Positions 7,842 through 63,741 of a stretch of 64,000 nucleotides of DNA are shown in pieces (position 1 is the stretch's first letter; the number at the start of each line of letters is the position of its first letter). The DNA is from Bdellovibrionales bacterium (GTDB taxonomy: Bacteria; Bdellovibrionota; Bdellovibrionia; Bdellovibrionales; UBA1609): the NCBI GenBank assembly GCA_023301025.1, contig JALZUR010000022.1, positions 32,724 to 96,723 of the forward strand, read 5' to 3'. The notes under the pieces were generated by a model. It did no database searches and was not told the DNA's origin. It was given only the letters and a program-made list of their open reading frames with translations. The translations under genes were made by a program, and so were the position numbers.

Positions 7842-8879
7842 TTAAGAGTTTTTAACGTCTACAAGTACACGGCCTTGGCTTTTATGCATAAGTATATCTT
7901 CTGAGGTTTGTTTTACTTCATTTAACTTAACCACCTTATAGACACGATCTATGAGGTTATCGATTTTATATTCTTTACCTAATTTTTTCCATAAATCTTT
8001 TCGTAAATCCATAGTGCAGTTGTTAGAACTTACTCCTAAAAGGTGTACTCCCCTTAAAATAAAAGGCATTACTGAACTAGAAAAACTCGAACCTTTTGCA
8101 AGTCCAATAGAACAAACATTCCCCCAAAGTGAAACTTCAGGTAAAACTGATTCTAAAAATTCTCCACCAAGGTTATCAATGACACCTGCCCACTTAACTG
8201 TTTTTAAAGGGGCTGTTCTTTCTTTTTGCTCTTTTTTTAGAACCACTTCATTATAGTGAAGCACCTCACTTGCACCAAGTTTTTTCAAGTTATCTTTAAA
8301 CTCAAGCCTATGAGTCACAGTAACAATCTTATATTTTTTTTGTTTTAAAATTTGAGTTGCAAAACCACCTACCCCACCCGTTGCTCCAGAAACGAGTATT
8401 GGCCCCTTTTCGGGATTCTGACCATTTAGCTCCATAAGATAAATAGCTAAAGCTGCTGTAAAACCAGCAGTACCTAAGATCATGGATTCTTTTAAACTAA
8501 GCCCTTCAGGTAAAGGAATCAGAAGAGATGAGTCTACATAGGCTATTTGAGTATAGCCCCCATCAGAAACCTCACCAATATTACAAGCTTGAACAATGAC
8601 CTTCTTACCTTTTAAAGGACCCTCGAGCACAACACCTGCCAAATCAATCCCGGGTACTATGGGATCAGATTTAAAAATAGGTGCTTTACCACAAACCCCC
8701 AAAGCATCTTTATAGTTAATACCAGAATAGTGGACTTCGATTTTTGTGGTGGTGCTCATTAAATCTTTCTTCAGATTAGAGTTTTGCTCTTCATCAGCAT
8801 ATTTTTGTAAACCTGAAGCTGGGTTCTGAGTATCCAGAAGCTTTAGTCCGATTTTTTTTGAAAAAATTAGAGATTTCAT
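7842..8879 (-). CDS. MDR-superfamily NADPH:quinone/acrylyl-CoA reductase (YhdH/AcuI family)
   Basis: HYSGINYKDALGVCGK…PGIDLAGVV and the nucleotide-binding VSGATGGVGGFATQI motifs are typical of the YhdH/YhfP subgroup. Confidence 0.7.
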   Translation of the reverse strand: MKSLIFSKKIGLKLLDTQNPASGLQKYADEEQNSNLKKDLMSTTTKIEVHYSGINYKDALGVCGKAPIFKSDPIVPGIDLAGVVLEGPLKGKKVIVQACNIGEVSDGGYTQIAYVDSSLLIPLPEGLSLKESMILGTAGFTAALAIYLMELNGQNPEKGPILVSGATGGVGGFATQILKQKKYKIVTVTHRLEFKDNLKKLGASEVLHYNEVVLKKEQKERTAPLKTVKWAGVIDNLGGEFLESVLPEVSLWGNVCSIGLAKGSSFSSSVMPFILRGVHLLGVSSNNCTMDLRKDLWKKLGKEYKIDNLIDRVYKVVKLNEVKQTSEDILMHKSQGRVLVDVKNS

Positions 8880-20932: not shown

Positions 20933-23386
20933 CTACATGCCTGTTGTAAAGGCTTTAGAAGAGTAGTTAACGTACCCTTCTTGATCAAAATCATCTACTT
21001 GAATTGTGGCCCATCTTGCCGCACCTGCATCAGAAATAATCTTCTTCTCATCAACTGTAATAATTGATTTTTCCACTGCCTCGTCTAAAGCATCTAAAAT
21101 TGGTTTTTTAGAGATCACTTTTTTACGCATAGCTTTTTTAATTTTAGCCTCAAAAGCTTCTGCTTTTTTACTAAGCTCAAAAGCCTTTTGCACTTGTCCT
21201 AAACCAGGCTCATCTTCTGCAGGCTTGTAAACACCATCGGTAAGTCGTTGTCTTTGCTCCCCTACAGTCATCATTGCTTTACAAACCTTATGTCCAAGTT
21301 CGTCTGAAGGACCACTACCAAAAGAGTTAAACCTTGCCCATCTACCAACAATACCTTTAAAAAACCATGTAAGCCCTGGAACTTTTAAGTTCTCAAAAAT
21401 ACCAACAAAGGCGTGTTGCATCTCATGCATGCCGTAATCAAGAGCGTACTGTGCAAAGACTAAGTCTTCTTTTTTTCCAGTCTCTTCATACCTTCTAATT
21501 ATTGAAAGACTTAAAAACATCCAAGAAAGAATGTCGGCATAACGTCCTGTGATTTTTTCTTTTACTTTTAAACTTCCGCCCAATGAACCCATGGCAATAT
21601 CTGCCATAATCGCAAAACTTGCAGATGCCCAAGAAAGTTTTCTGTAATATGAGTTCATAGCTCCACCAGAAAAACCTACAGACAAATAGCCTCTAGTAAA
21701 ACTTAAAAGTACAGATCTAAAAACGTTTCTAACTATATGACCAATGTGTGACCAAAAAGCCTTATCAAAAGCTTGAACATCTGAAGCTTCAGCTGCCTTT
21801 ACTTCTGCATAAGCATAAGGATGGGCTCTTAATGCCCCTTGTCCAAAAATCATAAGAGTACGAGTTAAAATATTTGCTCCTTCTACAGTGATACTGATCG
21901 GGGCACCTATGTAGCCATGTGCTAAAATATTTCTAGGACCTTTTGAAATTGCAGCTCCACCAACAATGTCCATCGCTCCATTGATAACTTTTCTGTAAGC
22001 TTCAGTAGCTTGATACTTTGCAATGGCTGTAACCACTGGAGGTGCTATACCTCTGTCTAAAGCTCCTGCAATAAAAGTTCTGCACGACTCAACCATATAA
22101 GCAAGTCCACCAATCATAGCTAGTGGTTCCTCAACTCCTTCAAACTTACCAATCGATAAACCAAATTGTTTTCTAACAACCGAGTGACCAGAAGCAGCTA
22201 AAAACGCAACTTTAGTTCCACCAACACTTTGTGAAGGAAGTGAAATACCTCGCCCTGCGCCAAGACAGTCCATTAGCATTCCCCAACCTCTACCAATACC
22301 GCCTTGTCCGCCAACAACAGCTTCTTCGATATCAACTAAAACATTACTGCCTTGAGTTGGACAGTTGTAAAAAGGGACTCCTAAAGGATCATGTCTATGT
22401 CCAATAACAACACCGGGTGTTTTACTAGGAACTAGCACACACGTAATCCCTAAGTCTTTTTGATCTCCTATGAGACCGTCAGGGTCTCTTACTTGAACAG
22501 CTAATCCAATAGTTGTCGAAACAGCAGCTAATGTTATCCATCTTTTGTTCCAATCAATTCTTAGTTTTAATTTCCCGTCATCACCTTTAACAACAACAGC
22601 GTATGAAGTTATTGAACCAGCATCACTTCCTGCATTTGGCTCAGTCAAACCAAAACACGGGATCTCTTCTCCCACTGCAAGCTTAGGTAGAAGTCTATCT
22701 TTTTGCTCTTGTGTACCGTAATGACCTAAAAGTTCTGCAGGTCCTAAAGAGTTTGGAACCATTACAGTTACACCAACAGGGATTGATCTTGATGAGATCT
22801 TTTCAACAACAGCGCCATGAGCTAATGCTGAAAATCCAAGCCCACCATACTGTTTAGGTATAATCATACCTAAAAACTTTTTTTCCTTTATGAAGCTCCA
22901 AACATTGTCAGGCATTTGACGGTTTTGCCAAATCTCCCAATCATTGATCATTTTACAAAGCTCTTCAGTAGGCCCATCAATAAAAGCCTGCTCTTCAGAA
23001 GTTAAACTTGGGTAAGGTTCTTTTTTTAACTTGTTAAAATCTAGCTTTCCCGAAAATAAATCTTTTTCAACCCAAACAACACCAGCTTCTAAAGCGGTTC
23101 TCTCAGTTTCAGAAATATTAGGCAAAACCCCTTTCATAACTTTCATCACAACATTTGAAATAAGCAGACGTCTTATAGGTTTAATTACAAAGATTAAAAG
23201 TACAGCAAGAATTACACCCAAGCCTATTGGACTTAAGCCTAGAGAAAAAGAAAATGCTAAAATTATAGCGGACCAAAAAATAAAAGGCGCACCAAGATAA
23301 CCAAAAAGCACCATTAAAAAAACTGAGCCCCATAAAATATAGCAATCAAAAGCATGTAAGCTTTCTGCGATTTGTTGTAAATCCAA
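20933..23386 (-). CDS. fadE: long-form acyl-CoA dehydrogenase FadE
   Basis: Colinear by eye with E. coli FadE: N-terminal membrane segments, SETERTALEAGVVWVEKDLFSGK, TSEEQAFIDGPTEELC and KQYGGLGFSA. TTG start preceded by AGGAGA. Confidence 0.85.
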   Translation of the reverse strand: MDLQQIAESLHAFDCYILWGSVFLMVLFGYLGAPFIFWSAIILAFSFSLGLSPIGLGVILAVLLIFVIKPIRRLLISNVVMKVMKGVLPNISETERTALEAGVVWVEKDLFSGKLDFNKLKKEPYPSLTSEEQAFIDGPTEELCKMINDWEIWQNRQMPDNVWSFIKEKKFLGMIIPKQYGGLGFSALAHGAVVEKISSRSIPVGVTVMVPNSLGPAELLGHYGTQEQKDRLLPKLAVGEEIPCFGLTEPNAGSDAGSITSYAVVVKGDDGKLKLRIDWNKRWITLAAVSTTIGLAVQVRDPDGLIGDQKDLGITCVLVPSKTPGVVIGHRHDPLGVPFYNCPTQGSNVLVDIEEAVVGGQGGIGRGWGMLMDCLGAGRGISLPSQSVGGTKVAFLAASGHSVVRKQFGLSIGKFEGVEEPLAMIGGLAYMVESCRTFIAGALDRGIAPPVVTAIAKYQATEAYRKVINGAMDIVGGAAISKGPRNILAHGYIGAPISITVEGANILTRTLMIFGQGALRAHPYAYAEVKAAEASDVQAFDKAFWSHIGHIVRNVFRSVLLSFTRGYLSVGFSGGAMNSYYRKLSWASASFAIMADIAMGSLGGSLKVKEKITGRYADILSWMFLSLSIIRRYEETGKKEDLVFAQYALDYGMHEMQHAFVGIFENLKVPGLTWFFKGIVGRWARFNSFGSGPSDELGHKVCKAMMTVGEQRQRLTDGVYKPAEDEPGLGQVQKAFELSKKAEAFEAKIKKAMRKKVISKKPILDALDEAVEKSIITVDEKKIISDAGAARWATIQVDDFDQEGYVNYSSKAFTTGM

Positions 23387-23481
23387 AGTGTTCTCCTATT
23401 TATTTTAAATAACTATACCAATTGCTTTGCACATAATTCAATATTTTTACAAGAATCGTACTAAAAAAGTTTAGTCCCTTC

Positions 23482-23510
23482 TTGAACATAAACGAAAGCC
23501 CAGATATGTT
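23482..23510 (+). promoter_or_regulatory. candidate sigma-70 promoter of histone-fold gene
   Basis: TTGAAC-N17-TATGTT about 55 nt upstream of the ATG at 23565. Pattern match only. Confidence 0.3.
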
Positions 23511-23564
23511 TAATTTATTGTTATTCGGACAATGAACCAAAAAGAAACTTTAAAGGAGTTCTCC

Positions 23565-23810
23565 ATGGCTAAGAAAAAAGCAAAAAAATCAACTAAGAAA
23601 GCAGCAAAGAAAACAACTAGAAGAAAATCAAGTGAACCTCTTTACGTTGCAAGTAAAGTAAAAATGGCTATTAAAGGTTACAAAATGAACATGGCTGGAG
23701 ATGCTCTAGATGGTCTTAACAGTGTTATTTATGCACACGTTGAACAAGCTGCTAAAAGAGCTCAGTTAAACGGCAGAAAAACTGTACGTGCGCACGATTT
23801 CTCTATTTAA
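23565..23810 (+). CDS. bacterial histone-fold DNA-binding protein (Bd0055/HBb-like) with Lys-rich N-terminal tail
   Basis: AAGGAG lies 6 nt before the ATG at 23565; the track ATG at 23532 has no SD. The core LYVASKVKMAIKGYKMNMAGDALDGLNSVIYAHVEQAAKRAQLNGRKTVRAHDF aligns by eye with B. bacteriovorus HBb. It carries the histone-fold GRKTV..D signature. Tail: MAKKKAKKSTKKAAKKTTRRKSS. Confidence 0.7.
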   Translation: MAKKKAKKSTKKAAKKTTRRKSSEPLYVASKVKMAIKGYKMNMAGDALDGLNSVIYAHVEQAAKRAQLNGRKTVRAHDFSI

Positions 23811-23888
23811 TTTATGTAAGTCAGATGTACAAAGGTTTTAGACCTTTACTGACTTTGATAAAATTAGTTTTTATATTTAGAAACTACA

Positions 23889-23922
23889 AAAAACCAGAGT
23901 ATTCACACTCTGGTTTTTTTTT
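23889..23922 (+). terminator. rho-independent terminator of histone-fold gene
   Basis: AACCAGAGT-attcac-ACTCTGGTT followed by TTTTTTT, preceded by an A-run. Confidence 0.7.
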
Positions 23923-24041
23923 AAATACTTTACAAAATATTCGTCTAAATATTCTAAAAAATATTTTATAAAGCTTTTAACAAAACTTTTTACATTCTTG
24001 ACTGTTTTTGTTTTGCTCTGGATGTGTTTGAATACACTTAG

Positions 24042-25388: not shown

Positions 25389-27593
25389 TTAAAGATCACC
25401 GTTTTCTAAGCTGCCAGTAGTTCCATTTCCACCTATGGGGTGCTCCCCTTGAAGATAGTCACTAGAAATAAGTTTTACTGAATAACCAAACCTTCCACCT
25501 TGCAAACATCCTGAAGGTTGTCTTGGCTTGTTGGTTCCAGCTGTTGCATCTGTAGGTGTTACACAACGAGCAAAAAATGCATCCATCACACCATCTGTTG
25601 GAGAAAGATAACTCATTGGTTCACGCCCTTTATTCCATGATGTTAGCATTGCAAAATTTGTAGATGAATTTAAAAAATAAGGCACCTGATCTGCACTGCG
25701 ATTTATATTAAAAGGTGCAATGGTGACTGGAATATCTTTGCCACCTTCAATGCTATAGTTAGAAAGCTGGTTTAGAATACTAAAGCGCTTATTCTCTTCA
25801 AAAGCTCCAATGTCTCCTCTTAAAGGTTTATTATTAGGTTCAGTGATCCAGCTTGATAATTTTTGAACCCCATTTTCTTCAATAAAATAGTCATAGTAAT
25901 TTGGCGAAATCGAATAGTACGTAATATCAAATGCATCAGGCACAATAGCTGCAATTTCCATTCTTCTGTTAAAAGAATCTGTTCGATCAACTCCTTCATC
26001 TCTTGAAACATCTTGTATAAGTGGATCACTGTAAGACTCTGTACTTTGATAAGAGTGTGTTACAAAGTGATAGTCTTGAATGGACGTGGGTGGAATTTGC
26101 CCACCCACACCTGATATATAATTCCACGCCACTAAAGGGCCCGCATGAACCATTGCTTCATTTGTTGTTAAACCATTTTGATCTGTGGGGAACCTTGAAT
26201 AGTTTGGATAAACCGTTGGATCGGTTGACGTTCTATTTGTTCCGTACTCACCAATGGTAACTCTGTTAGGTGTTTTAGCATCAGTACGCTCTCCACCATT
26301 TGACTGAACAGAGCCTTGTGGCCAAAGGCTTTCATACCATGGTCCAATGCGTCCACCAAAAGGTTTAGCATAAGACCGTCCTGCCACTCGTATTCCATCA
26401 TTTGAAATAAAGCTTCCTAAAAAAAGTGGCTTAGAAAAAGAAAAGGCATCCACTTTATTGTAAACCATATACCAAGGGTTTTTTTCTACCCCTAAACTTA
26501 AAACTTCAAATTGATCATCTGAAGCATTTGGTGGGTAACCTCCAAAAACTGCAATTTGTGTGTTGGGATCTAAACGAGTTATAAGGTTTTGAGTTCTAGG
26601 CACAGCTTGAATTGTATGATTTCTAACTACCTCACTGCACCCGCCTCCAGCAGTGGAAAAAGCTGAGTAAGGGATTAAGACATTTATATAAACTGGATTT
26701 AGCCAATCACTTGGTGAAATCCCAGCCATAGAGTTTGCAACTGTTAAAACATTTCTATTACCTTGCAAATACTCTCTGTTAGATTCAGTCAGATTGTGGG
26801 TAAATGTTTTATATGCTCCATCAAAAATATTTCCACCTTCAATATCACGCATACCATCAGCACCTGCAACAATAGGTCTGGCGAGGTTTTGTGCAATTTC
26901 ATTTATCACATGTCTTCTACTTTGCTGTTCGTATTTATGAGCCCCAACAATAGAGTTTGCATAGTACCAATTAAGGTAAGCAACATTTTCACAATTTGTC
27001 GCAATATTTAAGTTAGCTGAATCAACATCTCCTAAAAGCCCCCCAATAAGTCCACCAAGTATAGAACTTACACCCTCTAAATACCCCACATTAAAACTTA
27101 AAGTTGAACAGTAGTTATCACCACCAATATCACTTATTAAATGACCTGCACCAATACATACTCTTGGAGGAATAGGCCCCTGTGGGCCATTACCAATAGT
27201 AGCAGGTGTGTAAGGATCTCTATTTCCTCTTAAACCTTGCCAACCAAACTCTATTCCAGGGTTTCTTATGCCGTTTGCTGTACGCGAGGCATTCCCATAA
27301 ACCCTATACCGATAGCTTAGAAGCTTAAAACTTTGTCTGATGGCATAGTTGTTGTGAGCAATGGCTCCTAAAAGTTCGGCTTGTTTTGAAGCAACATAGT
27401 AAGAGGCAAGATCTGTTGCATTTTGAATATTTATTTTATCGTGAATGAACATCGAAAGACTTACAGTCATTGAAAAAAGCGTAAAGACCACAAAAAAAGA
27501 CAGTGCCATAAAAATGGTGATCTGACCCTTTAGTTTTTTAACGCAGTTGTTATCTTTTTTTTTAGTAAGGCTCTTTGGTTTTTTATAATACAC
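25389..27593 (-). CDS. large membrane-anchored/secreted protein with TadE/TadG-like N-terminal domain
   Basis: KGQITIFMALSFFVVFTLFSMTVSLSMFIHDKINIQNATDLASYYVASKQAE resembles the Tad (TadE/G-like) N-terminal domain (TM + LQNAADaAAL). The remaining about 680 aa are unrecognised. GTG start, no SD. Confidence 0.5.
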   Translation of the reverse strand: MYYKKPKSLTKKKDNNCVKKLKGQITIFMALSFFVVFTLFSMTVSLSMFIHDKINIQNATDLASYYVASKQAELLGAIAHNNYAIRQSFKLLSYRYRVYGNASRTANGIRNPGIEFGWQGLRGNRDPYTPATIGNGPQGPIPPRVCIGAGHLISDIGGDNYCSTLSFNVGYLEGVSSILGGLIGGLLGDVDSANLNIATNCENVAYLNWYYANSIVGAHKYEQQSRRHVINEIAQNLARPIVAGADGMRDIEGGNIFDGAYKTFTHNLTESNREYLQGNRNVLTVANSMAGISPSDWLNPVYINVLIPYSAFSTAGGGCSEVVRNHTIQAVPRTQNLITRLDPNTQIAVFGGYPPNASDDQFEVLSLGVEKNPWYMVYNKVDAFSFSKPLFLGSFISNDGIRVAGRSYAKPFGGRIGPWYESLWPQGSVQSNGGERTDAKTPNRVTIGEYGTNRTSTDPTVYPNYSRFPTDQNGLTTNEAMVHAGPLVAWNYISGVGGQIPPTSIQDYHFVTHSYQSTESYSDPLIQDVSRDEGVDRTDSFNRRMEIAAIVPDAFDITYYSISPNYYDYFIEENGVQKLSSWITEPNNKPLRGDIGAFEENKRFSILNQLSNYSIEGGKDIPVTIAPFNINRSADQVPYFLNSSTNFAMLTSWNKGREPMSYLSPTDGVMDAFFARCVTPTDATAGTNKPRQPSGCLQGGRFGYSVKLISSDYLQGEHPIGGNGTTGSLENGDL

Positions 27594-27613
27594 ACATCTA
27601 TTGTGCTCTAAAT

Positions 27614-28465
27614 TTATTTTAAAATAAACTCTTTTGACTTCATTTTTTTCTGATATCTTCTGTGAATCATTTTAAAGATATCATCACCTGCAACACCCAC
27701 AGCACCTTTTCTAGCTGTATCACCCATAGCAGCTAAAAGATCATCGTTGTTTGATTTTGCTGAAGCAGGCTGTCTACTCCCGTCTGCTGTTTGAATATAA
27801 GAGTCTACAATTTTAAGGCGTTTACTCTTAACTTTATTAGCACTACCTTTGTCTATAGACTTAAGCTTTTTTTCTAGAGCTATTTTTTTACCATTTGCAA
27901 AAGGACCTTTTTTAGGATCATTTGCAAGTGCTGATAAATTTTGAGTTTTGCCATTTGGTCCAGTAAGAGTTCCAGCTTTTTCATCTAGCTTATAACCATT
28001 TTCAGCTAAGGCTTTTCTTGCATTGTCTAAAATTCCGCCTGGTCCATTTATTAGCTTATTCACTTGATCACTATCTCCATCTGCAATTGCATTTCCAAGA
28101 GATGTTCCAATTAAACTTTGGTCAATAGCGTCTGCTGAACAACCCGATGCTGATGGGGTAAGGCAAAAGCCTTGATTTACAGGACCATCTTGATACTCAC
28201 TACCCGAAAGCTGTCTGTATTTGTTTCTGCTGTCTGAATACTGATCCGCTAAACTACTGAGTAATGAAAGTCCGACACCTATCATTGCGCAGGAGTAAGG
28301 ATTAAAAAAATTACAAGTGCCAGTCATAGTTGCTGTAAATGCTGCTGCAGCAGCAGTTGTAGCTACATTTTTGCCTATGTTAACCGCTATAGCATCAGAA
28401 GAACTACTTGCATACGTATTTATTGAAAACACTATTACACTGATTAAAGCTATTATCTTTTTCAT
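27614..28465 (-). CDS. secreted protein, unknown function (paralogous C-terminal motif with next gene)
   Basis: Signal peptide MKKIIALISVIVFSINTYA. An Ala/Thr/Cys-rich hydrophobic stretch. C-terminal GDDIFKMIHRRYQ. The start lies 1 nt after the upstream stop. Confidence 0.5.
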   Translation of the reverse strand: MKKIIALISVIVFSINTYASSSSDAIAVNIGKNVATTAAAAAFTATMTGTCNFFNPYSCAMIGVGLSLLSSLADQYSDSRNKYRQLSGSEYQDGPVNQGFCLTPSASGCSADAIDQSLIGTSLGNAIADGDSDQVNKLINGPGGILDNARKALAENGYKLDEKAGTLTGPNGKTQNLSALANDPKKGPFANGKKIALEKKLKSIDKGSANKVKSKRLKIVDSYIQTADGSRQPASAKSNNDDLLAAMGDTARKGAVGVAGDDIFKMIHRRYQKKMKSKEFILK

Positions 28466-28466
28466 A

Positions 28467-30002
28467 TTATTTTTTCATCCATGATTTTTTATTTTGCTTA
28501 GCATCAAAGAGCTTTTCTTTAACGGATGAGGCTTGAAACCTATACGAGGTTCTTGCAAAAATATTGTCTTGAGAGTTTGGCGAAATGCCAGCCGCTGCTA
28601 AACGTTTTGCTAAAAGTTTAAAATTTCTTGCCCGTTCACTTGCGTTAGCCTTAGCTTTTGAAGAGCTACCAAAGTTAAATTTTCTAGGTTTGTATTTGCT
28701 ACCTTTTGCTCTAGAACCCGAAGTTGCGCTTGATTTCCCGTAACCACTTATTAAGCCACCATCAGCTTTTGCAACCCCTCTTCTTCTAGCAGCTTTTTGT
28801 TGATTACCATTTGAACCACCACCAGCACCCGCAGAAGCGGCTCCCCCACCACCAAAGCCACCACCTTGACCTTGATTCTCTTGTTGAGCATCAGCGGTAT
28901 TTTGATCGTTGAGATTTTCTGGGAGTGGAGGTTCGTCAACATCATCTGAAATCGAACCAATTGCATTGATCTGAGAATCACTAACCTTTTGTATACCGCC
29001 ACCACCACTTAAATCGGCATTAGCAATATCACTGTTTGAGCTTATAGACGTTGGATTGATTTTTTCATCACTTGCAAAAGCCTCCATACAGCTTTGCATG
29101 GAACTTATAGACTGTGTAATTTCATTCAATGAGCCTGCTGCCTGAGCCTGACCTTTACTTGTGTCTTTAACACATGTTTGCAAGCCTAACTGAACATTAC
29201 CTCTCTTAGATAACAGTAAATTTGAAAGATTAGCTCGTTGTAGTTCATCCTCTACATTACTTAGAGTTTGAACTCTGTCACTCATACTTTTCACCAACTC
29301 GCCAACTAACTCACAAGTTCTTTTGCATCCCATCTTAGGTGCAGAGCCTGCTCTTAAAAAACCACAAATAAGATTTTTGGAAGTTACAGACTTATAAGCT
29401 CCAAAAGCTGAAGAGGCAGCAGCTGTACAAGATGCAATTCCACTTAAAAGATCACCACCACCAAATGCTCCTACTGCAAGTCCTCCAAAAATAGTAATTG
29501 GCGTACCAAACTTATCCATTATTGATGGATCACCAGTTTTTTCAGCACACTGCTCTGGACCAGAACAGCATGTAGAAGCCTCACGTCCATACTCTTCACA
29601 AAGGTTTATATAACCTATCAACTCTCTGTAAGTTCTATCAGAAGCTTCCTCTAGAGTTTGAATACTTCCAATCTCAGTTTTAAATTTATTAATATTACTT
29701 TCTGTTTGCGATGTTATTTCTAACTTGTCTGTACGTGATTCAAAAATCTTTTTAGCAATTACACTTGCAGATTGAACAGCTTCACTTTTTCCATCTTCAA
29801 CAGCACCACTAATATTAGCAGGCGTATTTCTGTGTGCATTTTCAAGACTACCCACATTAGATGGCTGTGCATCAGGAACAGTAACAGTGCCACCACCACC
29901 TGTAGTCTCACCATCAGCTTGTGCAAAACTTTTTGGATTTGAAACAAACAACAGTAAGGTGACCGATAAGAAAAATGACATATAACTCGATATAAACTTC
30001 AT
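28467..30002 (-). CDS. secreted Cys- and Gly-rich protein, unknown function
   Basis: Signal peptide (…LLLFVSNPKSFAQA). About 14 Cys. A GQGGGFGGGGAASAGAGGGSNGN tract and a basic tail. C-terminal QDNIFARTSYRFQ. Confidence 0.5.
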   Translation of the reverse strand: MKFISSYMSFFLSVTLLLFVSNPKSFAQADGETTGGGGTVTVPDAQPSNVGSLENAHRNTPANISGAVEDGKSEAVQSASVIAKKIFESRTDKLEITSQTESNINKFKTEIGSIQTLEEASDRTYRELIGYINLCEEYGREASTCCSGPEQCAEKTGDPSIMDKFGTPITIFGGLAVGAFGGGDLLSGIASCTAAASSAFGAYKSVTSKNLICGFLRAGSAPKMGCKRTCELVGELVKSMSDRVQTLSNVEDELQRANLSNLLLSKRGNVQLGLQTCVKDTSKGQAQAAGSLNEITQSISSMQSCMEAFASDEKINPTSISSNSDIANADLSGGGGIQKVSDSQINAIGSISDDVDEPPLPENLNDQNTADAQQENQGQGGGFGGGGAASAGAGGGSNGNQQKAARRRGVAKADGGLISGYGKSSATSGSRAKGSKYKPRKFNFGSSSKAKANASERARNFKLLAKRLAAAGISPNSQDNIFARTSYRFQASSVKEKLFDAKQNKKSWMKK

Positions 30003-39923: not shown

Positions 39924-42230
39924 CTATCTACCTGATTCAAAAACAAAAGGATAACTTGAGACTTCGGCAATTTCATTCTCACCTGGACTCGGAAAAGTTA
40001 AACCTCTTAACCTTACTATTAAACACTTTTCAACACTCTTATCTGTCAGCGTACTTGAAATAACTTTTGCATCTGTCATTTTCCCACCGCTTCTGATATT
40101 CCAACTCAAAACAACTTTCCCAGAAAGACTGCTGTTTCTAACTAAACCCTTTTCATAACAGGCAGCAATTGCATTTCTGTTTCTTCTAATAAGTCTTCTA
40201 ATAGCCTCTTTATCTATAGAGCTAGAAAACTCACCAGCATCCCCATCAACATTTACGATTGTTGAATCACCTTTTCCACCAAGGCCAGCAACACCGTACT
40301 CTCCAGAACCACCACCTCGACCAGAGGTTTGTATGTCACCAGCGCCTGCAAGAGCAGACCCTTGTCCACCTTTTCCAGCCTGTTGAAGTTTTGTTCCTAA
40401 ACCTTCTCCAGCTTGATCTGAAAGCTGTCCTTGAAAACCTGTCTTTGAATCTGCAGTACCAAGTGTTTGCCCAACACCTGATGAGGCTTTATCTAAAGCT
40501 GTGTTAACCCCACCACCAGCTAACACACTTAAAAGACCAGTTTTGGTAACGTCTTTCTTTTGAGACTTCATGTTAGCTGCTTTCTTACCCGTTTTTACAG
40601 AGCCACCAGGACGTGAAGATCCTATTTTGTTATTAGTCTTTTTTCTTGAAGGTGCAGCTTTTTTAGGTTTATCAGCAACTTTAGTTTTTTTAATACTCGG
40701 GTTTTTAACACCACGCTTTTTTTCACCAACCTTAACTTTCTTAGGCTTTGCTTTTTTCTCTGCTACTTTAGTTTTTTTAACAACTTTAGGCTTTGGCTTA
40801 GGTTTTGGCTTAGGCGGTATTTTTTTAACAGGTGGTGGATTAAATGTAATCACAGCTTTTTTCAAACGGTCTTCTAAAAGCTTGTCTGTATCGTTTAGAT
40901 CAGATGGTGCATAAAAAAGCATGTACAAGGCCACCAAAAGAATTGAAGCAAAAGACATGAATATACCAACCATCTCTGAACTTGAAAAACCAAGAACAGG
41001 AGCTGATTGAGCCTTTGGTGCATCTGCAACATGTGAAACATAAACCACAACTCTATCGCTTAATAGATTCACTCTAAGCATCTGACCTTGATCAAGATCA
41101 ACAACTTTCCCTACTTTTGAAACACTAATTTGAGAGTCTTCATTAAGCTGAGCAATTTTTGACTCTTGACCCTTTCTTATTAGTGAGCCGGTCATACTTG
41201 AACTCAGATGAACCATGCACCTGTCGTTTAATGATAAGAATCTTTGTTTAAATTTTGGTCCCATTAAAGGAACAAAAATACTTGATTCATCAGAATTTGA
41301 GATATTTATAACTCTATTTTTGGTATTAGAATTAGAGTAGTGATAGGTTTTTAATATTCTTTCTTTCCAACAAATTAAAACCTGTACAACTGATCCTCTA
41401 GACGCAGGATCAAGAATCTCCTCAACACTTTGATGAAGACTTGCCGATGAAAACTTTCCGCTGGATTGAGGCTCATCTTTTAAATTCTTTATTTGATTGT
41501 CAACGTTAAGTCGATCAATTTTAACCGCAGAATCTACTGTAACACCTGGATCAGTCTTGTCGTCATCGGACATACCGGTATGAGTTACCTCTTTATCTTC
41601 ACCTGAAAAAGAGTCAAAAGGAACAGGAGGTGGGACACGGTTAGGCGTATTAGAAGTAACAGGTTTAGAAGCTTTAGGAGAAGATGCAGCTGGTTTAGAA
41701 GTAGCTGGCTGAGAGATGTTGGCTTCTGGAACACTTATATCAATGCCAGGATCTGTAGCTTCATCATCAGCATCTGTGTGATTTATTTGCCTTGTTGATT
41801 GCTCTTCTTTTTTAGGCGTTGTTTGAACTCTGCTTTTCACAACAACGCTCTCATCAGCAGTAGAAGTATTCGTTCTTTTAGGACTTGGAGTAGCATGAGT
41901 TTTTTTATAATTTTGAGCGACACTAGGTGTCGGCACTCCAATATAAAACCTAATTGAATATGGACCAATTATTAATGCTTCACCAGAGTTTAACATGGTC
42001 TCAATGATATTCTCGCCCTCAACTTGAACACCAGTTTCAGAACCTAGATCTGTTAAAAAATAGTCCACACCTCTTCGCTCAATCATTGCATGTATTGGAG
42101 CTACTGTTTCATCATCAAGTGCAAGACTTGATTCAGGCTTCCTACCAATTACAATTTGTGGAGTTAAGAATTGCTTTACAGATATTAGTCTATCGTTTCT
42201 ATAGACTTTAAGAACAACTGGCTCAGTCAT
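39924..42230 (-). CDS. FHA-domain / Pro-Lys-rich / TonB-C-like (AgmX-PglI-type) gliding protein, GltG-like
   Basis: N-terminal FHA (IGRKPESSLALDDETVAPIHAMIERRGVDYFLTDLGSETGVQVEG). One TM (MVGIFMSFASILLVALYMLF). A PPKPKPKPKPK linker. C-terminal IDKEAIRRLIRRNRNAIAACYEKGL…GKVVLSWNI. I start at the ATG at 42230, preceded by AGGGGTGA and overlapping the upstream stop (ATGACTGA). Confidence 0.7.
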   Translation of the reverse strand: MTEPVVLKVYRNDRLISVKQFLTPQIVIGRKPESSLALDDETVAPIHAMIERRGVDYFLTDLGSETGVQVEGENIIETMLNSGEALIIGPYSIRFYIGVPTPSVAQNYKKTHATPSPKRTNTSTADESVVVKSRVQTTPKKEEQSTRQINHTDADDEATDPGIDISVPEANISQPATSKPAASSPKASKPVTSNTPNRVPPPVPFDSFSGEDKEVTHTGMSDDDKTDPGVTVDSAVKIDRLNVDNQIKNLKDEPQSSGKFSSASLHQSVEEILDPASRGSVVQVLICWKERILKTYHYSNSNTKNRVINISNSDESSIFVPLMGPKFKQRFLSLNDRCMVHLSSSMTGSLIRKGQESKIAQLNEDSQISVSKVGKVVDLDQGQMLRVNLLSDRVVVYVSHVADAPKAQSAPVLGFSSSEMVGIFMSFASILLVALYMLFYAPSDLNDTDKLLEDRLKKAVITFNPPPVKKIPPKPKPKPKPKVVKKTKVAEKKAKPKKVKVGEKKRGVKNPSIKKTKVADKPKKAAPSRKKTNNKIGSSRPGGSVKTGKKAANMKSQKKDVTKTGLLSVLAGGGVNTALDKASSGVGQTLGTADSKTGFQGQLSDQAGEGLGTKLQQAGKGGQGSALAGAGDIQTSGRGGGSGEYGVAGLGGKGDSTIVNVDGDAGEFSSSIDKEAIRRLIRRNRNAIAACYEKGLVRNSSLSGKVVLSWNIRSGGKMTDAKVISSTLTDKSVEKCLIVRLRGLTFPSPGENEIAEVSSYPFVFESGR

Positions 42231-42480
42231 TTTCACCCCTAACAACTTCGTATCTAGTTTCACGCATCTCAGGCAAAAAGTTATCTCTAAGTTTTAATAG
42301 TCTACCATAATCAGGGTTTTTGTTTCTTAATATTAAAAGTAAATCAGGAGAGCTTACATCTCCACTAATCAATTCATCTTCAAAATCAAGCTTAGTGGTT
42401 CTAGTCTCATCTTCCTGCGCAAACAAAGAAAAAGAGCTAAAACAAATCACAAAGAAAAGCGTCCAAGTTGTAATCTTCAT
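42223..42480 (-). CDS. small secreted protein in GltF position
   Basis: 85 aa with signal peptide FSSFSLFAQ. Translationally coupled on both sides (ATGA overlap at 42477-42480). Confidence 0.5.
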   Translation of the reverse strand: MKITTWTLFFVICFSSFSLFAQEDETRTTKLDFEDELISGDVSSPDLLLILRNKNPDYGRLLKLRDNFLPEMRETRYEVVRGEND

Positions 42481-45400
42481 TTGTACTTCTCCATCAATTC
42501 TATTCTATCAAAATCTGCCCTACTGTTAGCAAGCGCTTTGTATTGACTAAAGTATGGATTGTCTGAATTTTTTGCTTTTTTTATGAATTTAAATAGAACT
42601 GCAAGGTTAGCTACTGAGGATATATATCTTGAATCTAACTGTTTAATACTTTTTAAAGATGAAATCGCTCGGTTGTACTGACCCTTTGAGACTAAATACA
42701 GAGCATAATTATTAATAGCATCAGGCATGTAGGCACTTGGAATGTTTGAATCAGAACTAGGGTATACTTTAGAAACGTAGTTTCCACCCTTATCATAACC
42801 ACCATACTTCATATAGTATGACCCTAAATTTAATGCTGAAGGTACATGAGATGAGCTGATTTTTAATGCTGATCTTAAATTAGCAACAAAAAGTCTATAA
42901 TCTTGATCAAGATAGCTGTTGTAGGCTTGTAAATTAAAATAATCAGCTCTTGATTTAAACTTTGAATCTACCTTATCTAAGTATATTTTTGAAACCCCTG
43001 AAAGCTTTTTAAGACTGTAAAAGAGTGCAAGAGTTACTAAAGCCTTAATGTCGCTTTTATTTTTAGAAAGTCTACTCGAGGTTTTATTTAAGATATCAGA
43101 TTCAGACATATCAAGCATCTGTTCTGATATTGAAAGCTTTTTTAAAAGCTTTTTGTCATAAGGCATTGGGTAAAAACCAGCGGAGTAGGAAATTTTATAT
43201 CTTTCATAGCTTGAATCAAGCTTAGCTAGTTCCGATAAAGCTTTTACACTGTCTTCGTTAAACGCTCCAAGCTGTTCAGCTTTTTCATATGCCTTTTTAT
43301 ATGAAGTGATCGCATTTTTTTGAAAAGGTTCTACTTTCTTCAATAATAAACCTTTAAACTGCTTTTTTTCATCTACAGTCAAACCTGCTGGAAGAGGGGC
43401 ATTAAGAATTGCTACACTTAAATGCTGATAGGACTGACCAAGTCTATTAAGTGCCGATACAATTGTATAACCATCATCAAAATTAATAACCTCTTTCATT
43501 TTCTTGTTGATCTGCTCAATCATAGCTAACTTTTTTGTGATAGCCGAGGCTTGTTGTTTTGGATTCTTTGGGATTTTAATTGAGATGTATTGATAAAAAA
43601 CTTTGTTTGATAGCTCAAATTTAGCTTTTGCAGCGTATGTTGATGCCTTTACAGCGCCTTTTCTTTTAAACTTATCATAAGTAAGAGTAGAGGCTCTATA
43701 CCAATAAGATGCTTTATCAACAGCTCTTTTATCTTTATAAATATCACCTATACGCGTAGCTATTTTAACAAGTAAAAAAGGCTGCACCTTAGAGGCATTA
43801 AAAACTTTTAATAGAGTATTAAGCTCTTCAGTTGTGTCACCTCGCCTTTTGTAAGCCTCGGCAATTCTGTAATCGTACAAACTGGTAAACTTAAGGCTGT
43901 CCACAGGCTTTAAAAGTCTAAAAACTCTTTTCATACCTGAGATATCATTAAAAGCTTCGTTAATCACAGCTGCATTAGATAGGTATTTTGCCTTAATCCC
44001 TCTATCTTTTGCTTTAACGCCTAATTTTTCAAAAGACCTTGCCGCTTCTTTTAACCTACCTGTGTTTTCTAGAATAATAGCAGAAAATTTTTGCCCATTT
44101 TCATAAAACTCACCACCTGAGGGATCAATCTTAGAATAGGCACTTAAAGCCTTATTAGGATCTTTAGCTTTTTCAAAGTTAATACCAGCATTATAATGGG
44201 CTTGGTTCTTTAATTTTGAATTAGGGTAGCTTTTAACAAAACTTAAAAAAGCAAGAGCTACATCTTCTGGTTTCTTTTCAGCATCAATCTCTTCGATTTT
44301 TTTAAAAGCTGATTTTTCTACAATATTTTTAACTTCAGAAACTTCAATTGATGAATTACCAGTAGATGCACCTAAAGCTACAAGCTCGTTACCTGCTTTT
44401 TCTAAACCAGCGTAATCATTTTTTAATTTATAAGAGTCTATAATTAAATTTGAAGAAAACTTTGCAAAATCAGAGTTTGGACTCTCCTTAATAATTTCTT
44501 TAAACAATGGCTCTGATTCAGAGAAAAAGTTATGCGAGTAGTAAATACTAGCAAGCTTGTATTTAATATCTAATTTTTTTTCAGTAAATTTTGGGTTACT
44601 TACATAAGCTTTAGCAGATGCAACAAAGTCTTTTTCATCTTTAGAAAGTGGATACTCTTTAGTTGATTTTCCAACCTTACGTCTCACCTCTTCATCTGAA
44701 GGTATAATTTTTTCTAAGGATAAAACTGCATTCAACTTCGATTTACTTTCATATTTAGGATCTTTAACATTCCGATAAGCCTTATAAGCTCCAGGATAAT
44801 CCTGCATTTCATACAAAAGCTCCGCTTGATAAAACTGAAGCTCTGAATAAAATTCACTTTTTGTAAAAGTTTTTAGATACAGGTCATAACCATTCTTTGC
44901 TCCGAAACCTAGAGCTTTTCTCTTATCTTTTCGAAAATTTTGGTGAAGTTTTAAGACATGACTTCTTAAAGATGTTTCAGCTTTCGCCATAGCCTCTGCC
45001 ATCTTTGGATTATTCTTAGACTTTTGCGCCCACTTCTTATCAGGAGAAAACTGTTCTACCCACTTATAGAGCTCTTTTTCATATAGATCTTGCCTTCCAG
45101 TAGAAGCTTGCATGTTGACCATTGCATACTGATAATCAAAGCTCTTACTATTGTCGGGCTTCATCTCTGTGAGTCTATCAAAAAGATACTTAGCTTGTTT
45201 TTTTTGGCCTGTATCAACGTAAATGAATGCCAACTTTTCTAGGCTTTTATAGGCATCGTCTGTAGACATTATGTTTGTAAAGTACGTAAGTGCTGCCTTT
45301 GGCTTTCCTGATTCAGAGTAAAACAAAGGAAGATCTTTTTTAGCCTCATCAGCTAAAATTTTACTCTTTCTGTTTCTAACATCATCAGACCCAAGCTTTA

Positions 45401-46244
45401 CAACTTGAAGTATGTTCCTAAGTGCAGATGAGTGATCCCCCATCTTTCTGTTTAGCCAAGCAAGCTTATAAGTTGCTAGAACATAAGATGAAGACTTACG
45501 CCCATTACTAATAACTTTTTCATAATAAGTTTTTGCTAGATTTCTTTTATCTCCATCAAAATAATAATCAGCCAAAGAGAGGTTGGCTTCATTTATATAC
45601 TCACTTCTAGGATAAGAATCTGATAATTTCTTATAATAACCAATTCCCTCATTAATGTTCCCTAAAGACATATAATTATATCCTAAAAAGAACAAAACTT
45701 CATCGGCACCACGAGTATTTTTATAATTTTTAAGATACTGCTTATATATATCTATAGATTTTAAACTAAATTTTTTAGTTTCAGAGTTTTGAACTCTTGG
45801 CTTTTGCTTAATAGAACCTGCTAGATAAAGTTTTAACTTCTTTTCAAATTCATCTTGAGCTCTTCTATCGGCAAGAGCTGATTTTTCAGAGTATGATTTA
45901 GCTAACTTTAAAAGGATTCTTTTTTTCGTCTCACCACCATTAAGTTTATTTGAAAGCTTATGAAGCTGATTAATCTCTTGATTTAGTTTTTTCTCATATT
46001 CTGCTTCAGCCGTACCATCGGGAAAAATTGCGTTAAGGCTAGAGATAGGCTTACCCACTCTAATATTTACTCTATCTCTTGGTTTGGCAGCTTTAGAGTT
46101 ACCGTAACTAGGTAAGGTTCTTTCTTCTTTTTCAATGGATTTAATTGCATCTCTAACTGTCTTTGAAAAGGCATTCATTGATACAACTGATAAAGATGAA
46201 ACAACTAAGAGACTAACAGAAAATGATTTATAAATGCTACTCAC
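42477..46244 (-). CDS. very large TPR-repeat protein, GltD/AgmU-like
   Basis: 1255 aa with a signal peptide and dozens of TPR-like A..Y…G.Y..A repeats (for example EVLFFLGYNYMSLGNINEGIGYYKKL). GTG start overlaps the upstream stop by 8 nt. Confidence 0.6.
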   Translation of the reverse strand: MSSIYKSFSVSLLVVSSLSVVSMNAFSKTVRDAIKSIEKEERTLPSYGNSKAAKPRDRVNIRVGKPISSLNAIFPDGTAEAEYEKKLNQEINQLHKLSNKLNGGETKKRILLKLAKSYSEKSALADRRAQDEFEKKLKLYLAGSIKQKPRVQNSETKKFSLKSIDIYKQYLKNYKNTRGADEVLFFLGYNYMSLGNINEGIGYYKKLSDSYPRSEYINEANLSLADYYFDGDKRNLAKTYYEKVISNGRKSSSYVLATYKLAWLNRKMGDHSSALRNILQVVKLGSDDVRNRKSKILADEAKKDLPLFYSESGKPKAALTYFTNIMSTDDAYKSLEKLAFIYVDTGQKKQAKYLFDRLTEMKPDNSKSFDYQYAMVNMQASTGRQDLYEKELYKWVEQFSPDKKWAQKSKNNPKMAEAMAKAETSLRSHVLKLHQNFRKDKRKALGFGAKNGYDLYLKTFTKSEFYSELQFYQAELLYEMQDYPGAYKAYRNVKDPKYESKSKLNAVLSLEKIIPSDEEVRRKVGKSTKEYPLSKDEKDFVASAKAYVSNPKFTEKKLDIKYKLASIYYSHNFFSESEPLFKEIIKESPNSDFAKFSSNLIIDSYKLKNDYAGLEKAGNELVALGASTGNSSIEVSEVKNIVEKSAFKKIEEIDAEKKPEDVALAFLSFVKSYPNSKLKNQAHYNAGINFEKAKDPNKALSAYSKIDPSGGEFYENGQKFSAIILENTGRLKEAARSFEKLGVKAKDRGIKAKYLSNAAVINEAFNDISGMKRVFRLLKPVDSLKFTSLYDYRIAEAYKRRGDTTEELNTLLKVFNASKVQPFLLVKIATRIGDIYKDKRAVDKASYWYRASTLTYDKFKRKGAVKASTYAAKAKFELSNKVFYQYISIKIPKNPKQQASAITKKLAMIEQINKKMKEVINFDDGYTIVSALNRLGQSYQHLSVAILNAPLPAGLTVDEKKQFKGLLLKKVEPFQKNAITSYKKAYEKAEQLGAFNEDSVKALSELAKLDSSYERYKISYSAGFYPMPYDKKLLKKLSISEQMLDMSESDILNKTSSRLSKNKSDIKALVTLALFYSLKKLSGVSKIYLDKVDSKFKSRADYFNLQAYNSYLDQDYRLFVANLRSALKISSSHVPSALNLGSYYMKYGGYDKGGNYVSKVYPSSDSNIPSAYMPDAINNYALYLVSKGQYNRAISSLKSIKQLDSRYISSVANLAVLFKFIKKAKNSDNPYFSQYKALANSRADFDRIELMEKYK

Positions 46245-47740
46245 AGCGACTTACCCCCAGGTAATGATAGTTTCCTATCTCATCTAACCAGTACTCACCT
46301 TTAAACGGCCAATACTCATAACCATTTTTTCTAAAGCTAAAACGACTAGACTTTGCTTCAACCTTAGTATCAAAGTCATCGGTTGCCTCAAGCTTCTTTC
46401 TTGCATCTTCTTTTTCAGAAGAAACCAACTCAAATTTTACAAGTTCTTTTTGATCATCAAACTCATTAAGTTCTTTTTTGTATTGTAAAAGTCTACTTCT
46501 AATAGCCTTACCTAATCTTCTAAAGCTTCCTCTTTTTCTATTTTCAATAATTTTTTTAGCAAAAGAAGCAACAGTTGTATTTGACCATGGCCCACTTTTT
46601 TTAATCTTTTGCAAATCATCTTCTAAATTGTAGTAGTAATCAGATCTTGATTGAATCATAGTTGATCTGTTTAAGTCCCTGACCAGTACATAAGGAATTG
46701 TGTATCTGTAGCCTTTTTTACCGGTCTTAAACTCATTTTTTAAAGCTAAATAGTTTTTTAAGTCATTTTTATATGATTTATTTCTTTTTAAATATCTCTT
46801 TAAATCTTTGTTTATTTTTCCGTATGTCTCATCATAAACTTTTAAAACCTTGTTCACTTCATCTACTTTACAAATGTACAAATAGATAATAGATCGCAAG
46901 AGTGTAGCTTCAGGATAATAGTAGTTGTTGTAGTACTCTGAATGTAGAGACTGAAAGTTACTTAGAGCACTTCTAAACTTACCAGCTCTTAACATGGCCC
47001 AAGAAGACTCAAAAAGCATGTCATGAAAGTACTTACTATCTCTAGGAATCTTTCTGTATTCACTTAAAGAGCCATTCCATTTTTTCATTTGGTATAAGAC
47101 TCTTGCTCTACCCATTACAGCAGCTACTCTTTGATTGTCTACAATACCTTTTTCAGACCTTGCGTTGGCAGATTGAGTAAATGCAGAAAATGATTTTCTT
47201 AAACTGTTTGTCTCTGCTAACGCAAGCCCAATGAAATACCTAGCTTTAGAATACAGTTCATGATTTTTAGGTATTTTTCCAAAATAATTTGCAGCTTTTT
47301 TAAACTTACCTATTCTTATATAAGCCTGTCCAAATCTAAAGTATAAAATAGGCTTCTGCTCTTTTGGAAAAGTCTTAATTCTAATTTTAGAAAGAGCATA
47401 ATTCAAACCAACATCATCACCTGCATCAAAAGACAATCGTGAGAGTATTTCTAAGTATTTAGAAAGATGTCTACTTCTTGGACTTACTTTAATAGCTTTA
47501 ATAACACTAAAAATTGCAGGTTGCACAAGTTGCATATTTGCAAAACTTCGCCCTAACTCGTAATACACCTCTCCACTTTCTTTTTTATATCTACTATTAT
47601 TAACAAGACTGTATAAAACTTTTGAAGCTTCTTGTGGGTTTCCAGATTTTATTAAAGACCTTGCTCTTTCTAGCTCTTGAGAAGACCAAGCGTTGTTTAC
47701 AAAAAATATTAAAAGGATCGCAATTATAATTTTTTTCAAT
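46237..47740 (-). CDS. TPR-repeat protein, GltC/GltE-like
   Basis: TPR repeats throughout. I start at the TTG at 47740 (LKKIIIAILLIFFVNNAWS signal peptide), preceded by GGTGAGG. The track start at 47826 overlaps the upstream gene by 80 nt. Confidence 0.55.
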
Positions 47741-47746
47741 TTCGCC

Positions 47747-48523
47747 TCACCTAGTCTTACTAAATGGTAAAAATATACTAAAACCTGCTGACAGATATAA
47801 AAACCCTGTCTGAACTTCTTGACCACTCACGCTGCCTTGTAAGTCATTTCGAGCATTAGCTCTAAAAAAGTTGTAACTAAGAGTCCACTTAAAAGTTACG
47901 TTTTTTGTCATTGGGTAAACCTGCCCAGAGCCAACATGAAGTGTTGTCACTCTTTGGCCATCATTTGTCCCTGTTAGGCCGCCACCCAAAGTAAAATACA
48001 CTTCAAAAGGGTTGATAGTTTTTTCCTGCAAACTGATTTTTCCATATATTGGAGACCAACGAAGATGAATCCCATAATAATCTGAAGGCACAACAATACT
48101 TCTAGTAATGATATTTTGTTCACTCTCTAAATTTGAAGTAATATTCTTTTCTAAATCTGTTAAAATTAAACCCTCAAATTCAAGTCCAAAAGCTTCAGTG
48201 AAATGATATGTTAAAGACCCATTAAAACCCAAAAAGTCATAAAATTGCGAGTTTAAAGCAAGACTTCCAGCTCCCCATAATTCTAAACGTTTAGATTTAT
48301 CTAAATATTTTTTTTGAATTACAGCAATATCTTTAAATTTTTCAAGTTCTCTTAAGTACTTTATATCTTCTTTCTTTTCTTTTTTTCTAGAAACTTTATT
48401 AGAACTACGACTGGAAACAGACGACGAAGTTTCTTCTTCTGCTTCAAAATCATCAAAGACGTTTTGCGCTTCAGATAAAGAACAAAGTAAAAGCAAGCTT
48501 AAACTTAGTATAATTTTTTTCAC
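47747..48523 (-). CDS. outer membrane beta-barrel protein, GltA/GltB-like
   Basis: Signal peptide (LLLCSLSEAQ) and a Lys/Glu-rich linker. Amphipathic strands end in SIFLPF. GTG start after GGGGAG. Confidence 0.55.
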   Translation of the reverse strand: MKKIILSLSLLLLCSLSEAQNVFDDFEAEEETSSSVSSRSSNKVSRKKEKKEDIKYLRELEKFKDIAVIQKKYLDKSKRLELWGAGSLALNSQFYDFLGFNGSLTYHFTEAFGLEFEGLILTDLEKNITSNLESEQNIITRSIVVPSDYYGIHLRWSPIYGKISLQEKTINPFEVYFTLGGGLTGTNDGQRVTTLHVGSGQVYPMTKNVTFKWTLSYNFFRANARNDLQGSVSGQEVQTGFLYLSAGFSIFLPFSKTR

Positions 48524-63654: not shown

Positions 63655-63741
63655 GCGCCAGTGTCGGAATTGGTAGACGAGCCAGGTTGAGGGCCTGGTG
63701 GGGGCAACCCCGTGGAGGTTCAAGTCCTCTCTGGCGCACCA
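63655..63741 (+). tRNA. tRNA-Leu (anticodon GAG), type II with long variable arm, CCA encoded
   Basis: Hand-folded cloverleaf. Acceptor GCGCCAG/CTGGCGC. D stem TCG/CGA with GAATTGGTAGA loop. Anticodon stem CCAGG/CCTGG with loop TTGAGGG. Variable arm GGGG-gcaa-CCCC. T arm GGAGG-TTCAAGT-CCTCT. Discriminator A + CCA. Confidence 0.9.

Follow-up and report, generated by a model that had tools for sequence, protein, structure and literature searches.

Which class of bacterial histone is encoded at this locus of an uncultured Bdellovibrionales bacterium, and what should be made of the strongly basic extension at its N-terminus? Bacterial histones are a young field, and the two proteins characterised, HBb, which bends or coats DNA as a dimer, and HLp, which wraps it as a tetramer, both lack a long tail. 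An earlier reading of this DNA, made from its letters only (the sequence-only reading), had proposed an orthologue or paralogue of HBb fused to a linker-histone-like tail and expressed from a gene of its own. We have analysed the gene, its product and its surroundings in the window, i.e., the whole stretch of 64,000 nucleotides in which it lies.

The maximal open reading frame on the plus strand (23532..23810) has the capacity for 92 amino acids, beginning MNQKETLKEFS-MAKKK. The 81-aa product that starts at ATG 23565 consists of MAKKKAKKSTKKAAKKTTRRKSSE followed by PLYVASKVKMAIKGYKMNMAGDALDGLNSVIYAHVEQAAKRAQLNGRKTVRAHDFSI; it is identical letter for letter to the protein of the sequence-only reading, and the Shine-Dalgarno support claimed there for its start was found in place, as AAGGAG. 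The gene and the parts of its product are as follows.

23565..23810, plus strand: coding sequence of the 81-aa histone, stop codon included (8.95 kDa, pI 10.55, net charge +16)
23565..23636, plus strand: disordered Lys/Ala/Thr/Ser-rich N-terminal tail, residues 1-24 (from low pLDDT and composition)
23637..23807, plus strand: alpha3-truncated histone fold, residues 25-81 (from AF2 and Foldseek)
23649-23675, plus strand: alpha1, residues 29-37 (AF2)
23697-23768, plus strand: alpha2, residues 45-68, 24 residues long (AF2)
23790-23804, plus strand: alpha3, residues 76-80, a single turn, the protein ending at residue 81 (AF2)

This histone gene is real and conserved. Several independent contigs from metagenomes carry the identical 81-aa protein next to the same neighbours, and 879 homologues were found at E ≤ 1e-3, so the open reading frame is not a product of chance. 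The histones encoded at four related loci from other species are 82-88% identical to it.

General family libraries were uninformative about this protein: Pfam-A returned no family at E ≤ 10 for the 81 residues, and in NCBIfam the only match, to archaeal histones, stayed below threshold (14 bits, with the cut-off at 50). The classification therefore rests on comparisons with PDB entries, in sequence and in structure. Searched with phmmer against PDB sequences, the protein matched HLp of Leptospira perolatii (9QT0, E=2.4e-10), the archaeal face-to-face (FtF) histone HTkC (9F2C, E=1.7e-4) and HBb/Bd0055 (8CMP and 8FVX, E about 1e-3). The identity in blastp alignments was 50% to HLp (over 56 residues) and 38.6% to HBb. 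A single-chain AF2 model, built on an alignment of 67 sequences (A1), is confident over the fold: between residues 21 and 80 the block means of pLDDT lie between 88 and 97, 55 residues reach at least 90, and the model displays the alpha1-L1-alpha2-L2-alpha3 arrangement, with a shortened alpha2 and an alpha3 of a single turn, that defines the alpha3-truncated histones. The best Foldseek matches of this model are all histones, headed by HLp (9qt0/9qt1; TM 0.96, rmsd 0.7 A, 49-50% identity) and followed by HBb (TM 0.85-0.89, rmsd 1.2-1.3 A, 38-39% identity) and then HTkC; on both HLp and HBb it superposes over the full length. The histone fold that had been proposed from the letters is thus confirmed by a confident model and by sequence and structure matches to bacterial alpha3-truncated histones.

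The assignment within this group depends on a few residues. According to Schwab et al. 2024 (PMC11390915), alpha3-truncated histones comprise the FtF tetramers, a category defined by its torus-shaped homotetramer, the HBb-like 'bacterial dimers', defined by sequence clustering, and three smaller groups. The FtF profile described there conserves R48, N52, R54, T56 and D61, of which R48 and N52 form the contacts between dimers and are missing in the bacterial dimers. The HLp tetramer, which wraps about 60 bp, is held by a network of R49/S52/N53 against R55/T61/F63 (PMC12701072), and the R45A mutant of HTkC acts like the dimeric HBb (bioRxiv 10.64898/2025.12.06.692711). The corresponding element of the protein studied here is:

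23757..23798, plus strand: FtF signature R65-x3-N69-x-R71-K72-T73-x4-D78, with predicted tetramer-interface residues R65/N69/R71, the L2 DNA-binding KT and the R71-D78 'RD clamp'

R65, N69, R71, K72, T73 and D78 are invariant among the 67 sequences of the alignment, and the pattern RxxxNxRxTxxxxD occurs in all 120 of the top homologues, as well as in 105 of the 115 singlet representatives recovered by a search with the fold only. In the ungapped phmmer alignment, R65/N69/R71/T73/D78 fall on R49/N53/R55/T57/D62 of HLp, residues whose roles are described in PMC12701072 and PMC11390915. The protein accordingly has both the RxTxxxxD motif (R71, T73 and D78), combining the RD clamp with the L2 threonine, and, as R65 and N69, the pair R48/N52 of the FtF profile that the bacterial dimers are without; HBb has Ser and Asp at these two places. 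Of the six positions that make up the HLp interface, four have the same residue (R, N, R, F), and the other two differ, S52 being replaced by L68 and T61 by H77. With the family profile, HLp reaches 67.7 bits, HBb 46 and HTkC 40, which places the protein away from HBb by profile score. In sequence and in structure, it is nearer to the characterised FtF histone HLp than to the other classes, while the archaeal HTkC scores about equal to HBb or below it.

How do these results bear on the proposal of an HBb (Bd0055) orthologue or paralogue, a dimeric histone bending or coating DNA that has newly gained an H1/Hc1-like tail? The host does belong to the Bdellovibrionota, the match to HBb is significant both by its E value and by its TM score, and the invariant R71-K72-T73, with D78, provides the RKTxxxxD motif common to the bacterial-dimer histones (PMC11390915). 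The RKTV..D element noted in the sequence-only reading is indeed the conserved L2 motif of the alignment, and since RKT is a feature of the bacterial dimers, the earlier assignment was a reasonable one. Nevertheless, phmmer, blastp, profile and Foldseek comparisons all place HLp closer, and the invariant R65 and N69 distinguish the protein from HBb with its Ser and Asp and from the dimers lacking both (PMC11390915). Moreover, tails of this kind are widespread in the clade, which argues against a new fusion, and neither H1 nor Hc1 is matched in Pfam. We therefore regard an HBb-type protein as unlikely: the histone is FtF/HLp-like and not an HBb orthologue, and its conserved residues suggest that it forms a tetramer. 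Besides the two interface positions that differ from HLp (L68 and H77), two further counter-points should be kept in mind. K72 of the RKT motif is typical of bacterial-dimer and nucleosomal histones and is not strongly conserved in the FtF profile, and relatives of the protein are abundant in Elusimicrobiota, a phylum placed under the bacterial dimers, not under FtF (both from PMC11390915). Taken as a whole, including the predicted tetramer, the wrapping of DNA and the tail as a DNA-binding arm, the view that this histone is the Bdellovibrionota counterpart of Leptospira HLp is in our judgement a probable one.

Relatives that carry the FtF signature (loci L003-L082) were seen in many Elusimicrobiota and Krumholzibacteriota MAGs, and also in Acidobacteriota and one Zetaproteobacteria MAG. 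The passages of PMC11390915 considered here mention none of these four groups among the FtF hosts; Elusimicrobiota appear there under 'bacterial dimers'.

The second question concerns the tail. Its 24 residues include 10 K, 2 R, 4 A, 3 S, 3 T and 1 E, giving a net charge of +11 compared to +5 for the fold and +16 for the whole protein. The mean pLDDT of residues 1-20 is about 50, and residues 6-16 lie below 50. The lysine-rich tail announced in the sequence-only reading is thus present in composition, and the starts of homologues and in-frame indels indicate that it is translated; the accompanying statement that HBb has no such tail also holds.

The survey of tails that had been proposed as a check was carried out. 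Among the top 120 homologues, the median tail is 22 aa long with a median net charge of +10; this sample is biased, as the query included the tail, and hence the survey was repeated with the fold only against 1.84 billion representatives at 50% identity. The 146 matches of the second search comprise 115 singlets, 26 doublets and five others. At least 14 residues precede the fold in 52 of the 115 singlets. Tails of 14-51 aa that are clearly basic were counted in 26 of the 115; six attain a length of at least 24 aa, and six a charge of at least +11. In 80 species-representative genomes, the shortest tails, of about 5 aa (MAKKMEP...), are those of most Elusimicrobiota, and tails of 32-39 aa are reached in several Bdellovibrionota; long ones occur in Planctomycetota and Acidobacteriota genomes as well. 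Lengths per phylum are approximate, since automatic choice of the start codon made L004, L008, L026, L049, L056 and L068 too short and L041 and L057 too long. The best match among the contigs of these species-representative genomes is 69% identical. Every member of the close 'LYVASK' subclade of the Bdellovibrionota is tailed, with 17-39 aa.

These data agree with what has been published. That bacterial FtF histones commonly bear positively charged N-terminal tails had been reported before (Suppl. Fig. 13 of PMC11390915); according to the same work, the lengths of these histones run from 51 to 127 aa, many being of 75-100 aa, and Bdellovibrionota are among the host phyla. The description of the tail as a fusion to an H1/Hc1-like module cannot be upheld: basic N-terminal tails are normal in the clade and recur at 14-51 aa, so the feature is not unusual; Pfam-A at E ≤ 10 matches neither Hc1 nor the globular domain of H1, and the likeness is one of composition only. 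The tail belongs to the upper end of a known continuum and is not a novel fusion. Beyond MAKKK no position of it is conserved, and its length varies by slippage-like in-frame indels in A-rich codons. Such codons and indels fit the idea of Hocher & Warnecke that tails of this type readily arise through extension of an open reading frame into AT-rich DNA.

Several other proteins came to light in these searches. P0377 (98 aa, HLp-like, with an alpha1 VKAYIK as in HLp) and P0337 (109 aa, FtF-like) have K/A/T-rich tails of about 43-51 aa, and P0337 contains a near-perfect repeat TTKKAPAKK three times. The highest-scoring of the 50%-identity representatives were histone doublets (P0248-P0255 and 18 others, 26 of the 146), typically about 117-132 aa long, with two FtF-like folds and, in most of them, the R...N signature in both halves. 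They fit the doublet histone known from Bacteriovorax sp. ICPB 3264 (PMC11789641). That work on Bacteriovorax chromatin has the doublet as its subject and does not describe the protein encoded here.

What might the protein do in the cell? By analogy with HLp, two monomers would form the usual histone-fold dimer, and two dimers would probably pair as a torus-shaped tetramer, in which R65, N69 and R71 contact F79 on the dimer opposite. The alpha1 lysines K33 and K37 and the L1/L2 loop residues G45, K72 and T73 would then help to wrap the DNA, which in HLp amounts to about 60 bp; wrapping of this kind is known for HLp and HTkC only. The tail would most likely serve as a non-specific electrostatic DNA-binding arm. 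Such arms would be expected to raise affinity, slow dissociation, neutralise more of the DNA charge and possibly bridge neighbouring DNA. By simple arithmetic on the HLp footprint, the core of a tetramer carries +20 and the four tails add +44, giving +64 for about 120 phosphates, which corresponds to a nominal charge neutralisation of about 17% without the tails and about 53% with them. The tetramer, the wrapping, the high expression and the role of the tail are what we infer from conserved residues and from the known systems.

A role of the tail in regulation has also to be weighed. The tail could act as a eukaryote-style module in which reversible acetylation or phosphorylation of Lys, Ser or Thr switches nucleoid compaction, e.g., during a predatory cycle, a role that is compatible with the HLp-like reading. 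The presence of 10 Lys and six Ser/Thr among 24 disordered residues, together with the maintenance of long tails (17-39 aa) across the 'LYVASK' subclade, is in favour of such a switch. On the other hand, nothing beyond MAKKK is conserved, the length changes between close relatives in a slippage-like manner, the work of Schwab et al. (PMC11390915) likewise reports no conserved tail sequence, and the histone gene is not linked to any gene for a modifying enzyme in the window. A tail that is unconserved and variable in length fits selection on bulk charge rather than on specific modifiable sites, and we consider regulation of this kind improbable. A broader proposal, that the long tails of Bdellovibrionota FtF histones constitute either a linker-histone-like module, bridging particles and promoting hyper-compaction, or a life-cycle switch modifiable by Lys acetylation and Ser/Thr phosphorylation, is speculative and in our opinion rather doubtful. 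If either were true, the regulation of chromatin through tails would have a bacterial analogue.

The non-specific DNA-binding arm, like any other role of the tail, presupposes that the tail is made, and for this the start codon is decisive. Two elements precede the coding sequence.

23553..23558, plus strand: Shine-Dalgarno sequence AAGGAG, 6 nt before ATG 23565 (from the sequence and its relatives)
23532..23564, plus strand: in-frame upstream extension MNQKETLKEFS, probably untranslated (no Shine-Dalgarno sequence; its ATG absent from the related loci)

When the locus is aligned with the four related loci, the Shine-Dalgarno sequence and ATG-GCT-AAG are conserved and the upstream ATG 23532 is absent from the relatives. 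The Shine-Dalgarno context TAAAGGAG is kept in L085 and L086, while L083 and L084 carry TAAGGAG. A start of the form MA[KRA][KR] is found in 104 of the 120 best homologues, and MAKKK-type starts recur across phyla. The tail-coding indels that separate the gene from its close relatives, of 6 and 21 nt, are both in-frame, and the next methionine downstream, M34, lies within alpha1, past the invariant K31. Since the Shine-Dalgarno sequence and ATG 23565 are conserved, MAKKK-type starts recur, the indels keep the frame and M34 falls in alpha1, we conclude from these sequence comparisons that the 24-aa tail is translated; the same evidence speaks against initiation downstream of the tail, which the sequence-only reading had named as the finding that would overturn it.

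It is therefore highly improbable that the tail is an annotation artefact, with initiation at ATG 23532 or at an internal Met and a tail that is absent or different: a 92-aa record of the same gene (P0123) does exist and a start-site ambiguity, 63 vs 77 aa, is also known for HLp (PMC12701072), but ATG 23565 has its Shine-Dalgarno sequence 6 nt ahead, whereas ATG 23532 has none and is not conserved, M34 comes inside alpha1 after the invariant K31, and both the spread of MAKKK starts across phyla and the in-frame tail indels point the same way. [quoted passage not shown] 2025, PMC12701072). The databases carry the histone gene studied here in an 81-aa and a 92-aa version, and the longer one, P0123, is probably a mis-called start at the non-conserved ATG 23532.

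The surroundings of the gene suggest a transcription unit of its own. The elements that flank it, and one that belongs to the divergent side, are listed below.

23482..23510, plus strand: candidate sigma-70-type promoter, -35 TTGAAC (23482-87), 17-nt spacer, -10 TATGTT (23505-10); 8/12, in a conserved block
23811..23862, plus strand: first 3' hairpin, without a clean U-run (dG -13.6 kcal/mol, z -2.8)
23888..23922, plus strand: intrinsic terminator, a 13-bp stem (hairpin 23888-23919) followed by U9 (dG -15.9 kcal/mol, z -6.1)
23412..23441, minus strand: divergent promoter-like site TTGAAT-18-TATAGT (TG-extended), outside the histone gene, found as a scan match

As had been proposed, the gene is monocistronic: on one side it has a divergent acyl-CoA dehydrogenase gene, on the other an MFS/ATG22 transporter gene that follows the terminator. 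The divergent acyl-CoA dehydrogenase gene lies upstream in all four related loci, and the MFS/ATG22 gene lies downstream in two of the four. The evidence for the promoter-like element proposed upstream is divided. A block CTTGAwCAT...AAAGCCCAGATATGTTTA, common to the window and the four related loci, contains TTGAAC-17-TATGTT, which may function as the promoter judging from this conservation; however, the element reaches only 8/12, and the sigma-70 scan found no plus-strand site of at least 9/12 upstream of the histone gene. The two downstream hairpins are both borne out by their folding energies and z scores, the first being the weaker and the second a strong intrinsic terminator of the classic type. 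None of 200 shuffled sequences was as stable as the terminator hairpin, which the scan also detects on the minus strand; as its stem is flanked by A and U, it could act in both directions. The relatives have their own, non-homologous GC hairpin with a U-tract at the same place. A 48-aa open reading frame on the plus strand (23825-23971) overlaps both 3' hairpins together with the terminator and is almost certainly not a gene.

On the divergent side, the most strongly conserved intergenic block of the five related loci (23410-23447) coincides with the minus-strand TTGAAT-18-TATAGT site, which presumably drives the gene of the 817-aa acyl-CoA dehydrogenase (20933-23386). The GC content of the locus is ordinary for the region, with no compositional anomaly; in view of this and of the conserved synteny, we reject horizontal transfer as an explanation of the locus. 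High expression of the histone is plausible, since the gene has a strong Shine-Dalgarno sequence and a terminator, and HLp, HBb and LA_2458 provide precedents. The best reading of the gene is that it encodes an abundant nucleoid histone of an uncultured Bdellovibrionota bacterium, the abundance being deduced from these features. The relatives of SecD for which a name is given, at 73% identity or less, are all MAGs labelled 'Bdellovibrionales bacterium', in line with this host. In the 64-kb window, tblastn revealed no second histone gene and no HU gene; a weak HU match at 8385-8579 was discarded, as it falls inside a Zn-dependent alcohol dehydrogenase.

A few other features of the window deserve mention. 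In the minus-strand region 25389-30002, a 734-aa protein bearing a TadE/G-like (Flp pilus assembly) domain at its N-terminus is followed by open reading frames of 283 and 511 aa for which Pfam gave no match; the region may represent a Tad-pilus-related cluster. The gene of the 734-aa TadE/G-like protein also adjoins the histone locus in one relative, L085. Further along the minus strand (39924-47826), a 779-aa FHA/YscD-like protein has as its neighbours two large proteins with TPR repeats (1255 and 529 aa). The only match in the window at the Rfam gathering threshold is one tRNA gene (63655-63738, plus strand).

What is added here to the knowledge of bacterial histones is incremental: the class, its presence in Bdellovibrionota and the commonness of positively charged tails have all been published. 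According to a preprint of December 2025 (bioRxiv 10.64898/2025.12.06.692711), functional data on FtF histones exist for HLp and, more recently, for HTkC only. Neither of them is long-tailed, and experimental work does not appear to have covered any FtF histone with a long tail so far. The locus indicates that an uncultured lineage of the Bdellovibrionota uses the HLp-type scaffold and not the HBb type. As its tail is among the more highly charged in the family, the protein offers a convenient natural test case for the effect of basic tails on a wrapping bacterial histone.

Among the known systems, HLp (PDB 9QT0/9QT1/9QT2, PMC12701072) is the closest. Both proteins have the alpha3-truncated fold, with 50% identity over 56 residues and an rmsd of 0.7 A between structure and model, and both are encoded by single genes with a start defined by a Shine-Dalgarno sequence. 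The tetramer residues R49/N53/R55/F63 of HLp correspond to R65/N69/R71/F79, its DNA-contact residues K17/K21/G29/T57 correspond to K33/K37/G45/T73, and the RD clamp (R71-D78 in the protein described here) is common to both. They differ in the segment before alpha1, which in HLp has about 9 residues, 7 of them disordered, compared to 24 with a net charge of +11 in the present protein, in the L2 loop (KRTT in HLp, GRKT here) and in the positions S52/T61, which are L68/H77 here. HLp comes from a Spirochaetota host, whereas the window's protein belongs to the Bdellovibrionota. HBb/Bd0055 (PDB 8CMP, 8FVX, 9EZZ) shares the phylum, the truncated alpha3 and the RKTV motif of L2, but it is more remote than HLp, bends or coats DNA as a dimer and lacks a long basic tail.

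Compared with the tailed bacterial FtF histones catalogued in PMC11390915, the protein is of the same class, and only its sequence and its species are new. The C-terminal tail of mycobacterial HupB (cited in PMC10919886) and the tails of eukaryotic H1 and core histones are similar in a more general sense, being disordered, low-complexity polycations rich in K, A and T attached to a small DNA-binding fold. These tails share no sequence homology with the one described here (no Pfam match), which is devoid of S/TPKK and PAKK repeats and of proline and which, unlike that of HupB, is placed on the N-terminus of a histone fold and not on HU.
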